Positions 3,670 through 20,367 of a stretch of 64,000 nucleotides of DNA are shown in pieces (the first letter of the stretch is position 1; the number at the start of each line of letters is the position of its first letter). The translations under genes were made by a program, and so were the position numbers. The DNA is from an uncultured Bacilli bacterium. GTDB lineage: Bacteria; Bacillota_I; Bacilli_A; RF39; UBA660. The notes beneath the pieces are model-generated. The model was not told where the DNA came from and did no database searches. It was given only the letters and a program-made list of their open reading frames with translations. Where the stretch lies: NCBI GenBank assembly GCA_934167485.1, contig CAKPKL010000002.1:16422-80421 (forward strand), given 5' to 3'.

Positions 3670-5088
3670 CTACTTAAACTTTATTTTATGATAACTGTTT
3701 ACATCTATATCAGTATCATATGAATCTTTAACATATTTTAATTTTAGACATATATATTCTGGAATATTACCAGTAAGATTTATAGAATTATTATATCCAT
3801 CAACTGATAACGCAGCATCTATATCTAAATTTTCAGTTGTTAATGAATTACCATCACAATCTGAAATATCAATTGTTGCACTTTTAAATGCATACTCATT
3901 ATACATCTTAACTTTATAATAAACCTGATTACCAACTATCTTAGTAATTCTAAGTAATGTTGGATCATTACTAGTTAATACCTTTATAGAATCAGCAATT
4001 GAAGATTCACTCGTACCATAAGAAATGTAATTAATTGTTATTTCATATTGATTATTAGGAACCAAACCTGTAATTCTATAACTGTTTGCTTGTTTATTTA
4101 AATAATGGTAATTAATATTTCCAATTGAATCTTTAACTGCTAAAAATACACTTAAATACTTTTCTTCTGGATCAATTATCGAATAATTTACATCTAAATA
4201 ACTTGCTCCAGGTGTTACTGATCTTAAACTGATATTTTTATATAAATTAGTTTTATTCTTATTATTAGAAACAAGCCCACTTAAATTTATAATTTGATTT
4301 ACTATATCATTATATATTTGAGAACCTCCACCTGTACCACCGTTATTATTTGTATTATTATTTCCATTATTATTCGTATTTGTATTATTGTTAGTTTGAT
4401 TTTTATTATCATCTTCTGCTACATCATCTTTTTTTACATACTCATTAGTACTACCATTTATTTTTTTCAAATCTATTTCATTATCATTTATAATAAGTTT
4501 TTCATTAGCTACATCAAACTTATTATCACCTACTGATAATACAAGTGGATTAATAGTTTTGATATTTATACTATTATTTACAAGAAGTGCATTACCTGCC
4601 TTATCAATAGAAATTACTAGATAATTGGAAGTTGAAAAGCCTTCACCTTTAATATCTAAACCTATCATTAAATATTTTCTATCACTTAATTTAAAGAACT
4701 GAAAATCACTTACATTACTAATAGTAGTTTTTTCACTTTTTTCGCTTATATCACCGTTAGTATAAACCTGATAAATATTACCATAAGCACTTACTTGATT
4801 TCTAGATTTATCATAAATTACAGTTTCTTCTCCCAACGAATATTTTTCATTTCCTTTATTTAAATATAAATAATATTTGTTATCCCACTCTTTTTTCAAA
4901 AGCGATTCATTATCTATTTCTAAATAACTATAATTTTCATCATAAACAATATTATTAGAAGAAATTTTATATTGTTCTAAATTTTTATTTTTTGTTCTAT
5001 AAACTGAAAATACTAAGATTCCTATTATAAGTAAAATAATAAGTATAAATATTACAAATAATAATTTATTTTTAGATTTTTTATACAT
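3670..5088 (-). CDS. Membrane-anchored surface protein (472 aa): N-terminal TM, globular domain, Asn/Gly low-complexity linker, FN3-like C-terminal region
   Basis: TM is [19 protein letters not shown]. Linker is [31 protein letters not shown]3-like strand motif is [14 protein letters not shown]. Shares the [13 protein letters not shown] motif with the 1861-aa neighbour (LFKISDKKYLMAA). RBS AAAGGAGAAAT. It sits where atpB (a subunit) would be in a canonical operon. Confidence 0.8.
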
Positions 5089-5108
5089 ATAAAATTTCTC
5101 CTTTCTTT

Positions 5109-20200: not shown

Positions 20201-20367
20201 GTCATGTTTTGAGATAATACTGCATAACCTTTTTTATCAATTGTTTTATATGGTCTAAAATTCAAGTATACATTAACAAGAATTATAACAATAACAGCTA
20301 CCACTACCATAATTATTAATGGGAATTCATTTATATATTTATTCTTTTTTGTTTTTGACTCTTCCAT
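11269..20367 (-). CDS. Giant surface protein (3032 aa): N-terminal TM, FN3-like repeats, three GLUG-motif beta-helix-like modules, C-terminal TM anchor with basic tail
   Basis: The ORF track gives 11269..20424. I prefer the ATG at 20367 (MEESKTKKNKY; GGTGAT 5 nt upstream). TM is FPLIIMVVVAVIVIILVNVYL. FN3-like motifs are NSNTEYNVVGTYKY, SNTSYNYEIKFFD and YDTNYRIIITGTYD. Module heads are GFRGSIDFQGYKLTL, FDGNQHTIDFGNNNI and FYGNNKTISVSEL. Many GLUG-type repeats are present (VGGIIGY, VGGIAGT..RNSYS, VGGIVGN, VGGLVGY, LGGIAGY). The C-terminus is LSGIIIFTLSIVSIFGALYLLINRKRLRGVS with no LPXTG. Confidence 0.85.
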   Translation of the reverse strand: MEESKTKKNKYINEFPLIIMVVVAVIVIILVNVYLNFRPYKTIDKKGYAVLSQNMTYNLMNNNTVNDTLNVGVVGVNSGDSIYKQVDSYYVGEKDKKEIDMDYPLYSIDGLTIYSITDNFTLIDRNFNRVAGYPGLSITSGILYNDGDIEPADDIDYIFAHLNNSVLLGLQTITIKTAYNEYNIPINSPIYFNTKYINYYVFDGEKFNYNRIDDIYYDSLIKIGDVSLTYEEFLLKMNLVKKIDKEEDNTIDDNKPDEVPIKQEDDKQDDDTFIKPTVSITDFKVNVYSIESVMTINDPSGVITTNPTFEIYKPDGKLNSRKKVSNNGLFAITGLNSNTEYNVVGTYKYKNKQGITMVVTFFEGKIKTKDISELEAINLDSDVGDRYSNKIEIKDLTILNSDNEALRGVKKIVLSVWKTGSSNKTNFNLSYSKISSLIKGKPTVVSTTNSLDSNTSYNYEIKFFDGDSNELKTTGKDSGVIRTTKEVPTLKFNSDINKQTNDVKLTITTLNKDDIYIRDYNYKLYSYSGVLIDEGSLNYENKYPNNLSFNNLDYDTNYRIIITGTYDLEDGKGLQEFYEEKTFTTASLDTLINAWYDQNTKIVTSNSIQAKIYIGSKTPILDKEDTEVTIYLKDKDGNDILDEEGNLKYYNTYKNLEKNGSYYNVDSLFEGLESKTEYIMALKIKIKQIEKDAYIFKNMNPPITTLDQEAYVNVRYKKLMGEMLDLSFDVVDLDRLIDESKVNIEIYEGLYDNIESINSQYIYRSVQQIENTHDDKYSNITNIKLTLDGYSSDSYTIKISAKPYNGVDVEQVIPIKSNTESEDGFVYLIQVDRNVKTKLEMYQQKLSEDKSNYLTEINVKYNLGEMTSNLYGIDCFNGKCNVIGYITQDITESTPSGKFVPISDKNSTFDSLEPVTEVSDLGEERKFYKIRIKFKNENKKENQGEHKFYVVLEKNAATNLANFSKIEETDLNYLYILSSLDYTTEHEIYNISSVDGRDDGLYSIDLGKHYVVTENLDLKKADGTFYPNKVIDGFRGSIDFQGYKLTLYKNNDLSPTLFSSVSKTGVLKNALVYYELDYAGVIQDLAGLVQVNRGTIENFVIHVKQNNTTGSANKMGLLARLNYGTLKNFVIYLDTDIYTYGVSSLVSYYNYAGAKIKYGAVISNNDSKIYLKDITSSHGTFTYYNEGVISNVYNLTDVLSTEENYVKGSSGIAFISKENRNSSTIYNTLSVATSTHNSTTNGPSIYSSKGKVSNNYYVDTNSLNYSYRNSFNKKISKASLRNAGVLDVILNSDSEPEAGDKDPYSITSGYYPIVNMSEFMKEYQVPIEITYELKDSTIDIISTEAIKDNREDGVAKVRVYISNPNKLEITNIKVDKATAQICTTCEDELENGGYDENYQISNLILTLTIDEENEQALSNYDILSMTYKTSLGDEITKSYYTDSNPRIIDITLYKRVASYEGLISAINSNSNIYMLGNISLNNNTEIGGTACLNQAQNETYNEINSSCLPKLETYSAKFDGNQHTIDFGNNNIKRGYFFYGYTGELSNLQVKNMKLSSSEYYIGFIRLTTLAKIDNVDLTDLDILADRRGINNTTTVYLGSLTAYSTGSEFDKISVNNATINKDSSQNGKLYRFNVGGIIGYGLDGKISNSYSYNLKFNATYDTLIGYQTVGGIIGYASATYPNFIDINNCYSTGKFDTELSNVGGIAGTISIGKVRNSYSSMTLFSQGSNVGGIVGNYLKRLSISNSISNNLFVGTILNPKGKPNYDSITYLDTVKTNNFTIDNVPSFTSFTDVYNADDIYNNIYLQNGEAGNKEYLPYLSNSSFVEQNVKDKKVGEKSDQDFDYSIEYVIDEGCLDKLDSLFKEDNDYKNACATSAILKTNKELYVKEGKNKSKDLEINSLQKEDEYYRYEIKPTNNVYYSIYEVEVENENRNEKLTVKFFKHIESTSDWDSLNFLTSGGYDSKYQNILLLDDIKIEPDGNIDKQIYYNGKEYQNRNILSIQKSLDNFYGNNKTISVSELNDNHYTDKDSIRNSLIYWLDGTMKNVKFNSIKISGQNSNYSAIVRFNNGTITNCDFKSIDIINYANVVGIVGLSNGYINSVTMDDIRMRGRYYVGGLVGYSTSEDKESNIHIKDIIASNVTIEAYSHLGGIAGYIDYFISDIKLTNVTIQGYEGLWLNTDTVNSYIRPRQYVGGIVGYGDCVNCTLNSTNDKINIIYIDKASRVGGITGSLLTHMYLNNYNVENLLITSDPNIINPPAKLHETSGESTYVGGTYGYGYYGRHDYATNVVIASTTSEKFGKNLSELTPSDLANSLSDSTIRNRAYEPLNANIVGGIGGFMYSIQYSYLKNSLIYAKKNTGGMAGYIGTYYSHETFRNVVSNSFIAVSENAAGGILGKHDTITDGPANFRYNIVLNTKISSKYSSGGIIGYINNSTDYSQNISFSNNLVEGCIIEADSNEGTAGGLIGKIYKTPQSQDKKYNKSLFYGDLIGKNVGSGFGQIENLVPSASYVNISNAFDLSKESKFMEYSDTNEPSEIQINTPSDLNSFVGSQGIYKLSNIYFPVFVEGGSNPQISDEEKVKIPNATTQTTRLMAPQMRMMRNYAVAYSNPVKIKYDVYASDVDKINIEFSNIDQNSYFYYEIGDYKSYDISINNRVYTISYDYKSPIKIYVSNGSNYKTSTIDPSELSKKISLVGDSVYYINNGILYGEENSIMGSFINLYNNKVLTSDNSIYYIDTKEYVDSYVDYSILESIPLYSFIYNEKHINTYYNFTDIDGSIQNYQVLVKNGVLSIIDSSLDNKKNSYIIDNYNNNEIQIILDNKGELYSLKNNIKYPSDLVNKDIEELFTDLYSSSTIAVIRYKNEGIYAFNYQTGELVFTNITKDKSFLEYIKSKLSEDSREEVIKNLSKSSNYKNMEKLKIKIEEISISDAKGKITGNNSITSSGKNYTMVYNANTKKYDIYNLEEVLTSPESITTENDKINSDYELVEFYNTSHTTKQEKSLSGIIIFTLSIVSIFGALYLLINRKRLRGVS

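Follow-up and report, generated by a model that had tools for sequence, protein, structure and literature searches.

Three genes on the minus strand of a 64,000-nucleotide (nt) stretch of DNA from an uncultured Bacilli bacterium (assembly GCA_934167485.1, contig CAKPKL010000002.1, positions 16,422-80,421; G000:C2:16422-80421), referred to here as the window, encode proteins of 472, 1861 and 3032 amino acids (aa) that are best explained as three separate membrane-anchored ectoproteins of common design, which diverged from one another long ago. An F1-like ATPase (with c-like, b-like, alpha, gamma and beta genes) is joined in an obligate gene set by the 472 and 1861 families and by a further N-anchored protein of 236 aa, encoded beyond the left end of the window; the 3032 family is optional and accompanies only certain arrangements of this cluster. 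The phyletic and operon evidence demonstrates a functional coupling of the surface proteins to the ATPase, and it is probable that the three proteins are extracellular components of an F1-like/c-ring ATPase surface machine. The source is a metagenome-assembled genome (MAG) of 1.26 Mb with a G+C content (GC) of 25% and an estimated completeness of 94%.

Association with an F1-like ATPase

Among 151 genomes sampled from the order, genes of the 472 family, of the 1861 family and for the b-like stalk of the ATPase are found in exactly the same 10 genomes and in no others. This phyletic match also holds for genomes in which the ATPase is on a different contig or at a distance of 44 kb, and one genome of the same genus has neither the 472- and 1861-family genes nor the b-like gene. 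A scan of GTDB species genomes identified 115 loci, 80 of which were fetched and compared; the gut MAGs that contain them bear the labels Bacilli, Clostridia, Tenericutes/Mollicutes, 'Mycoplasma sp. CAG:956' and 'Clostridium sp. CAG:354'. In 67 of the 68 loci with enough flanking sequence, the gene immediately before that of the 472 family is the 1861-family gene, and ATPase genes follow the 472-family gene in 57 loci. The downstream order is c-b-alpha-gamma-beta-83-(177)-236 in 47 loci (type I/Ib; the c gene is upstream instead in 7 of these) and 236-c-b-alpha-beta-83-gamma in 10 loci, the numbers denoting protein lengths in aa; in a further 12 loci, the 236-aa gene stands alone downstream and the ATPase is encoded elsewhere. 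The 236-aa protein (L004:14117-14827, about 1.6 kb beyond the left end of the window) has a basic N-terminus, one transmembrane (TM) segment and an Asn/Tyr-rich ectodomain of about 195 aa, and its gene is the most constant companion of the 472-family gene (70 of the 80 loci), often following it directly.

The 3032 family is distributed differently. Its gene is present in 33 of the 47 type I/Ib loci and in none of the 30 others, and it is placed either after the 236-aa gene (with a 13-nt gap in locus L001) or, as in the window, before the 1861-family gene. Searches of the genomes of the order with the first 1000 aa of the protein, and then with a profile (A2), detected the family in 3 of the 10 cluster-bearing genomes. 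Large open reading frames (ORFs) after the cluster in type II/III loci were considered as replacements for the 3032-family gene and rejected, as they encode housekeeping proteins (tRNA synthetases, RNase J-like) or a cytoplasmic coiled-coil protein.

The alpha- and beta-like proteins match F1 alpha/beta far better than FliI/SctN (464 vs 194 bits), with the alpha-like protein scoring below the curated atpA cut-off (464 vs 554 bits). A phmmer search of the MAG with the alpha and beta sequences of the cluster detected no further alpha/beta paralogue of the F, V or A type, which suggests that the organism has no canonical ATP synthase. The alpha-like ORF is 560-1416 aa long, against about 444 aa here, in L071 G071:C28 (locus L020 4888-9138), L036, L038, L040, L042 and L085, which suggests insertions or fusions in the alpha-like gene. 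The polytopic 177-aa protein (L004:14814-15347), with about five to six hydrophobic segments and no family match, is encoded mainly in arrangements that carry a 3032-family gene; this protein could be the stator or 'a'-like membrane partner that is otherwise missing.

Shared architecture and membrane topology

An earlier note on this DNA, made without database searches, had described the three proteins as sharing a basic N-terminus, a single N-terminal TM helix, a globular N domain, a low-complexity linker and fibronectin type III (FN3)-like repeats. This layout was borne out by hydropathy analysis, Foldseek searches and two AlphaFold models, one of the 472-aa protein (86-sequence alignment, mean predicted local distance difference test score (pLDDT) of 82) and one of residues 1-640 of the 3032-aa protein (20 sequences, pLDDT 83). 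Each protein begins with a basic N-terminus and one strong hydrophobic segment (residues 15-35 in the AlphaFold model of the 3032-aa protein); next come a juxtamembrane all-beta domain (about 170-200 aa), a low-complexity linker that is disordered, the FN3 modules and, outermost, a part specific to each family. All the motifs quoted in the note are present at the expected positions: the 12-residue motif at 472:131 and its counterpart LFKISDKKYLMA at 1861:151, the linker strings at 472:233, 1861:261 and 3032:252, and the first post-linker strands FIQPTFTVESM at 1861:310 and FIKPTVSITDF at 3032:273.

The modules in both models are tandem seven-stranded beta-sandwiches of the FN3 fold, with a pLDDT of about 90, and Foldseek searches against the PDB placed tandem FN3 structures (fibronectin, Tie2, contactin) on top for both, with E-values of 1.6e-7 (472-aa protein) and 7.8e-10 (3032-aa protein) and a probability of 1.0; the architecture given in the note is, thus, real. 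The gathering score of Pfam fn3 (PF00041) is not reached by the 472-aa protein (E 0.011, 16.3 bits vs a 25-bit cut-off), and the 1861- and 3032-aa proteins do not match this model; a precomputed PF00041 match is present in a few family members. Pfam and NCBIfam scans of the three proteins returned only this sub-threshold fn3 match, one Glug match and noise, and phmmer searches with the 1861- and 3032-aa proteins against PDB sequences returned nothing. Beyond FN3 and GLUG elements, no meaningful Pfam, NCBIfam or PDB relative was found for any of the three proteins.

The net charge of the 15 residues preceding the TM segment is +3.4 to +4.6, versus about 0 after it (averaged across families), and this asymmetry indicates an N-in/C-out orientation, supporting the claim of the earlier note that all three proteins are anchored at the N-terminus; their bulk lies outside the cell. 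A cytoplasmic location of the large domains was considered and rejected on the basis of the positive-inside statistics of all four families and of the C-terminal tail of the 3032 family, the charge of which averages +3.3. This tail follows a second, C-terminal TM segment, and the two are found together in 88 of the 91 members of the 3032 family, so that the 3032-aa protein is not anchored by the N-terminus alone. Hydropathy analysis detected no C-terminal hydrophobic segment in the 472- or 1861-aa proteins. No LPXTG-like motif was found in the last 60 residues of any of the 91 members of the 3032 family, although the genome does encode sortases.

The FN3-like modules are detectable only near the membrane. 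They end near residue 800 in the 3032-aa protein, most of which is not FN3 and consists largely of GLUG-type blocks. These blocks are mutually homologous (hhalign P down to 2e-27) and contain 13 GG[ILM]xG motifs; residues 1666-1695 pass the cut-off for Pfam Glug (PF07581; 23.6 vs 20.5 bits, E 6e-5), the only Pfam match of this protein. FN3 thus makes up only the stalk next to the membrane, and the 3032-aa protein, with a tether at each end, differs in kind from the other two. The modules of the 1861-aa protein, which were found by hhalign comparison with the FN3 modules defined by AlphaFold, are detectable only up to about residue 720, with one more at about residues 1040-1105. When compared with all other segments by hhalign, neither the distal half of the 1861-aa protein nor the C-terminal domain of the 3032-aa protein gave a match.

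Homology among the three proteins

Family alignments were assembled from three homologue searches, and later from the 80 species loci, and were then compared profile against profile with hhalign; about 30 comparisons with reversed profiles of the same composition served as controls, all of which gave P values of at least 0.008. The N domains of the 472 and 1861 families match with P values of 2.9e-6 and 5.8e-6 (probability 85-88%), and the core of this alignment contains K-x-x-D-R/N-K-Y-L, the most conserved block in both families. The likeness F(F/K)(K/I)(L/S)SD(R/K)KYLM(I/A) previously pointed out between these two proteins is therefore beyond chance. Once composition is corrected for, the 472/1861 pair is the only one of the three with a significant N-domain alignment (P 3e-6), the N domain of the 3032-aa protein remaining at control level (P 0.036-0.059), so that the proposal of a single paralogous family stands for two of its three members in this part of the molecule. 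Profiles of the N domains, searched with HMMER against all the ORFs of the genome, gave no cross-family matches and no further paralogues. The ectodomain of the 236-aa protein has weak profile scores against the N domains of the 3032-aa (P 7e-4) and 1861-aa (P 1.6e-3) proteins; these hint at, but do not establish, a wider N-domain superfamily in which the 236-aa protein might bridge the 3032 and 1861 N domains.

The homology of the post-linker repeats, also proposed in the note, was confirmed for all three proteins. The post-linker FN3 regions of the 1861- and 3032-aa proteins match over 268 colinear columns (hhalign P 7.5e-17), their first modules being colinear with a P value of 8e-12, and the FN3 pair of the 472-aa protein matches the repeats of the 1861-aa (P 3e-6) and 3032-aa (P 7e-6) proteins, the P values against either protein lying at about 1e-5 to 1e-6. 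Independent support comes from an HMMER profile built on the N-terminal 640 aa of the 3032-aa protein, which in four genomes detects FN3 modules in members of the 1861 family (E 3e-9 to 5e-6), thereby linking FN3 module 3 of the 3032-aa protein to that family. Composition-adjusted pairwise BLASTP between the three proteins yielded nothing significant, the best result being an alignment of the 1861- and 3032-aa proteins that is colinear after the linker (E 0.14). As judged from these profile comparisons, the 472- and 1861-aa proteins are true distant paralogues across the N domain and the FN3 modules, and the detectable homology of the 3032-aa protein to the other two is limited to the FN3 base.

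Conservation, length and strain variation

The three proteins had been viewed as stalks of very different lengths belonging to one family, but they represent three distinct orthologous families, each of near-constant length: 441-537 aa for the 472 family (more than 286 homologue matches, of 442-528 aa), 1546-1926 aa for the 1861 family (1773-2108 aa among the matches of the homologue search) and mostly 2800-3700 aa for the 3032 family. An exhaustive search for the latter gave 401 representative clusters with E-values of 1e-30 or better, in all of which the profile aligns with the N-terminus of the protein. One locus, L003 (GCA_025992415.1, DAJPHB010000001.1:167795-196272), contains two tandem 3032-family genes and a 615-aa ORF matching the C-terminal domain of the 3032-aa protein.

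Conservation is concentrated near the membrane. The N domain of the 472-aa protein carries a K133-D136-R137-Y139 motif, of which K133, R137 and Y139 are conserved in 100% of 192 sequences of the family, and 18 of the 23 invariant residues of the family lie in this domain. In the 1861 family, K158 and Y159 are conserved in 97% and 95% of 106 sequences, respectively. A comparison of strains, suggested in the note as a means of revealing length variation, showed no change in module number, with close strains differing by small indels rather than by modules. The membrane-proximal 450-600 aa are 96-100% identical between strains that share only 39-66% identity in their distal parts. In one strain variant of the 1861 family, the first 450 residues are 100% identical and distal windows are 39-66% identical; in strain variants of the 3032 family, both ends are 92-100% identical and the middle is 52-71% identical. 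As seen in comparisons of the window proteins with P0122, P0160 and P0161, the variants are mosaics in which proximal segments of 96-100% identity abut distal segments of 39-70% identity, in both the 1861 and the 3032 families. This mosaic pattern suggests that the exposed parts are replaced by recombination or are under diversifying selection.

A putative surface machine and alternative explanations

The surface machine that is considered probable here would have the F1-like/c-ring ATPase as its inside part and the N-anchored 236-, 472- and 1861-aa proteins, optionally with the 3032-aa protein, as its outside part. The conserved TM helices and juxtamembrane domains probably form the interface to the membrane part of the motor, through which ATP hydrolysis by F1 would be transmitted across the membrane, moving or resetting the surface proteins. 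The FN3 stalks would act as spacers that span the cell wall and hold the strain-variable distal parts outside it, so that these parts could contact the environment (host mucus, glycans or other cells). Such a device might serve in adhesion, motility or substrate handling, its possible analogues being the gliding legs of Mycoplasma mobile (Type 2) and the MIB-MIP system with its Type 3 ATPase, and it is by analogy that we infer mechanical transmission and an output in the form of motility, catch-release adhesion or substrate handling. A fuller version of this idea is rather doubtful and is put forward tentatively: wall-bearing, genome-reduced gut Firmicutes may possess an undescribed rotary-motor-driven surface machine, in which an invariable set of N-anchored ectoproteins (236-, 472- and 1861-aa, with or without the doubly anchored 3032-aa protein) would be driven mechanically by an F1-like head, c-like ring and b-like stalk via their conserved TM helices and a new, beta-rich juxtamembrane 'transmission' domain, resulting in motility, catch-and-release adhesion or the processing of macromolecules of the host. 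In evolutionary terms, it could be a cousin or a precursor of the Type 2/3 systems of Mycoplasma, at present regarded as specific to mycoplasmas.

Several observations weigh against the assignment of the three proteins to such a machine. Co-occurrence and operon linkage indicate functional association only, not contact or force transmission. The 3032-family genes also occur away from ATPase genes, within the 10 kb examined; at locus L003, they adjoin cell-wall genes and there are no ATPase genes within 10 kb. The match of the 3032 N domain to the other two N domains stays at control level even with larger alignments and AlphaFold secondary structure, and no solved-structure match was obtained for the N-domain fold, FN3 having dominated both Foldseek searches. 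Finally, the genome encodes Mur ligases and Ddl, so the organism makes a cell wall, and since peptidoglycan genes and sortases are present, a leg mechanism of the Mycoplasma style would have to act through this wall.

An unlikely alternative is that the proteins are passive, N-anchored FN3 adhesin stalks displaying distal binding parts, with their adjacency to the ATPase due to co-regulation or to a shared mobile island. Adhesins typically consist of an FN3 stalk and a variable distal region, 3032-like genes occur without ATPase genes nearby, and the patchy distribution of the cluster, present in few genomes of the order, absent from one genome of the same genus and found in MAGs labelled both Bacilli and Clostridia, would fit a transferable island. 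However, passive stalks would not account for a phyletic match with the ATPase stalk gene that is perfect even when the genes are unlinked, or for the almost invariant order of the 1861- and 472-family genes. Family lengths are fixed and module number is constant between strains, conservation is strongest in the TM and juxtamembrane part rather than in a distal binding domain, and LPXTG motifs are lacking despite the presence of sortase genes.

The ATPase could also be imagined as an export, insertion or assembly engine for large signal-anchored proteins, the three proteins being its cargo. The strict gene linkage, the uncleaved anchors on the giant proteins and the need for about 2,960 aa of the 3032-aa protein to cross the membrane between its two TM segments are compatible with this explanation, as is the distant relationship of the alpha and beta subunits to the FliI/SctN export ATPases. 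It is nevertheless quite improbable, as alpha and beta are far closer to F1 than to FliI/SctN, the cluster retains gamma, c-like and b-like subunits, as expected for a rotary enzyme, and the small 472- and 236-aa proteins, which would need no special exporter, are the most strictly conserved partners. It is highly improbable that the layout is convergent in three unrelated proteins, through AT-rich composition bias and the generic presence of FN3 in bacterial surface proteins: this would agree with the negative results of composition-adjusted BLASTP, the failure of HMMER profiles to cross-detect N domains and the lack of any match for the 3032 N domain, but the profile-profile scores are three to fifteen orders of magnitude beyond those of 30 reversed-profile controls, the cores of the alignments fall on the motif that both families conserve most strongly, the first post-linker modules are colinear, and HMMER ties FN3 module 3 of the 3032-aa protein to 1861-family proteins in four genomes.

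Relation to known systems

A machine combining an F1-like ATPase with surface proteins, the role considered most probable here for the three proteins, has precedents (bioRxiv 10.64898/2025.12.04.692339; PMC7052211). The Gli123, Gli349 and Gli521 proteins of M. mobile are very large surface proteins of graded size, encoded by tandem genes and working with the Type 2 F1-like ATPase; they are anchored by TM segments (N-terminal in Gli349, C-terminal in Gli521) rather than to the wall (PMC7052211; PMC11864180). The proteins described here similarly constitute a tandem set of three large surface proteins of graded size, with TM anchors and repeats of about 100 aa serving as arms or stalks, and they would work with a non-synthase F1-like alpha/beta/gamma ATPase. 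Unlike in M. mobile, the ATPase genes are in the same operon rather than at a separate locus, c-like and b-like subunits are found in place of the 12-TM X0 protein, and the hosts are wall-bearing gut Firmicutes. No sequence similarity to Gli123, Gli349 or Gli521 emerged when the three proteins were scanned against Pfam and NCBIfam, no direct profile comparison with the Gli sequences having been made. The alpha- and beta-like proteins score below the Type 2 cut-offs (glide_MMOB1660, 392 vs 600 bits; glide_MMOB1670, 328 vs 850 bits for the 303-aa piece of the beta-like protein).

The genes for MIB-MIP surface proteins lie immediately upstream of, and systematically co-occur with, an atypical F-type ATPase, for which it has been proposed that ATP hydrolysis inside the cell resets the surface protein outside; this Type 3 ATPase has been described as mycoplasma-specific (bioRxiv 10.64898/2025.12.04.692339). 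The cluster described here has the same arrangement of surface-protein genes immediately upstream of an atypical F-type ATPase and the same systematic co-occurrence, and it would follow the same logic, but its surface proteins are unrelated FN3/GLUG giants, without any MIB or MIP domain detected in the Pfam and NCBIfam scans, and its membrane part consists of an 81-aa c-like and a 249-aa b-like protein rather than 12-TM and 2-TM proteins. The alpha-like protein (MSC_0619, 312 vs 520 bits) and the beta-like piece (MSC_0618-type beta, 344 vs 570 bits) are also below the Type 3 cut-offs. The cluster is related to but distinct from the Mycoplasma Type 2/3 systems, to which it is analogous without being a member.

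Gram-positive fibrillar adhesins have a stalk of repeated Ig/FN3-like domains and an adhesive tip (PMC9210967). The three proteins resemble them in their repeated beta-sandwich stalk, low-complexity spacers and fast-evolving distal regions, but differ from them in having an N-terminal TM anchor (plus a C-terminal TM segment in the 3032-aa protein) instead of an LPXTG/sortase anchor, a conserved juxtamembrane domain, a fixed number of modules and an obligate coupling to an ATPase.

The GLUG motif (PF07581) occurs in large bacterial surface proteins and in proteins of the IgA1-protease type. The central region of the 3032-aa protein resembles these proteins in passing the PF07581 cut-off and in its GG[ILM]xG motifs and four homologous blocks; it differs in that the Pfam match is single and short, and the TM anchors at both ends and the FN3 base constitute a new context. 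No protease or other catalytic domain was detected in the 3032-aa protein.

F1-like ATPases that power surface proteins rather than produce ATP have so far been known only in mycoplasmas, where Type 2 serves the gliding legs and Type 3 the MIB-MIP system, which cleaves antibodies, and no description of a cluster such as this one outside Mollicutes was found in the literature. Its extracellular partner set is now defined: obligate 472 and 1861 families sharing a new juxtamembrane domain, and an optional, doubly anchored giant of the 3032 family. If the coupling is mechanical, it would represent a second, independently evolved or ancestral, case of force transmission from a rotary motor to the surface, acting through a cell wall, and the conserved TM residues and the K-x-x-D-R-K-Y-L motif would be the parts to study. 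It would also mean that abundant uncultured lineages of the human and animal gut bear a strain-variable surface structure, which may matter for colonization and immune recognition.

Organization of the region

The features of the region are listed in Table 1. Beyond the left end of the window, the contig (L004) contains the rest of the beta-like gene, followed by genes for an 83-aa protein, the polytopic 177-aa membrane protein and the N-anchored 236-aa protein.

Table 1. Genes and protein domains of the surface-protein and ATPase region, in window coordinates.
Feature	Position (residues)	Strand	Basis or remark
Cys-rich 771-aa protein	20480-22795	-	First in transcription order
3032-aa protein	11269-20367	-	Optional third partner, membrane-anchored at both ends
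3032, all-beta N domain	19660-20256 (38-236)	-	AlphaFold; size and strand pattern like the 472 N domain
3032, acidic disordered linker	19558-19641 (243-270)	-	AlphaFold
3032, four to five FN3 modules	17959-19539 (277-367, 377-482, 489-584, 592-~706, possibly ~722-803)	-	AlphaFold, Foldseek, hhalign
3032, four GLUG-type blocks, ~300 aa each	12688-17490 (960-1330, 1440-1800, 1940-2250, 2300-2560)	-	Pfam Glug, hhalign
3032, conserved C-terminal domain (2600-2990), C-terminal TM (3000-3026) and basic tail	11290-12570	-	Hydropathy, conservation
154-aa small N-anchored protein	10808-11272	-	ORF and hydropathy
1861-aa protein	5109-10694	-	Conserved family, gene directly upstream of the 472-family gene
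1861, N domain	9945-10598 (~33-250)	-	hhalign match to the 472 N domain; K153-I-S-D-x-K158-Y159 motif
1861, Asn/Gln/Gly low-complexity linker	9780-9932 (~255-305)	-	Lowest conservation within the N-terminal region
1861, array of ~four FN3-like modules	8532-9761 (~312-413, 415-510, 531-610, 640-721)	-	hhalign P 8e-12 to 1e-5; HMMER cross-matches
1861, extra FN3-like module (~1040-1105) and ~750-aa distal part, strain-variable	5112-7577	-	hhalign
472-aa protein	3670-5088	-	Minimal member: TM anchor, N domain, linker, two FN3 modules
472, TM helix	4990-5070 (7-33)	-	Hydropathy, AlphaFold; N7, F11, F14 at least 90% conserved
472, all-beta juxtamembrane N domain	4471-4977 (38-206)	-	AlphaFold, ~20 short strands; most conserved part
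472, Asn/Gly/Thr low-complexity disordered linker	4243-4425 (222-282)	-	pLDDT <50
472, two FN3 modules	3679-4236 (285-371, 378-470)	-	AlphaFold, Foldseek
c-like 81-aa protein	3411-3656	-	F1-like ATPase gene, downstream of the 472-aa gene, same orientation
b-like stalk 249-aa protein	2660-3409	-	F1-like ATPase gene
alpha-like protein	1308-2642	-	F1-like ATPase gene
gamma-like protein	530-1342	-	F1-like ATPase gene
beta-like protein	1-525, continuing off the window	-	F1-like ATPase gene

The lengths of 1861 and 3032 aa are counted from ATG codons that match the N-termini of homologues, and ribosome-binding sites of the GGTGA/GGAG type precede the ATG starts. The Cys-rich neighbour is found in none of the 80 loci and is outside the conserved set; the 154-aa protein is conserved with the cluster in one of them, and in the window the start of its gene and the stop of the 3032-aa gene share 4 nt. 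The intergenic region between the 154- and 1861-aa genes contains, on the minus strand, a weak AT-rich hairpin (10782-10808; TCTAGA-AAAAT-TCTAGA, TCTAGAAAAATTCTAGA) followed by T8, which was overlooked by a standard terminator scan, and then a promoter-like site, TTGAAA-17-TATAAT, at 10759-10731. Together, these two elements could split a unit comprising the 3032- and 154-aa genes from an operon comprising the 1861-aa, 472-aa and ATPase genes. The promoter and terminator scan was uninformative in this DNA of 25% GC (181 sites vs 174 expected). An Rfam scan of the window gave zero matches, and no 16S gene was found in the MAG.

A conserved pilin of the uncultured clade TANB77 has been linked to immunotherapy response (PMC11680825). 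Orphan proteins with a prepilin-type N-methylation leader (Pfam N_methyl) are encoded at 27796-28995 and 48899-50032 of the window and at L004:12610-14040. One N_methyl protein is encoded directly after the ATPase cluster, and relatives are found just upstream of the 1861-family gene in L092, L101, G028 and G084.

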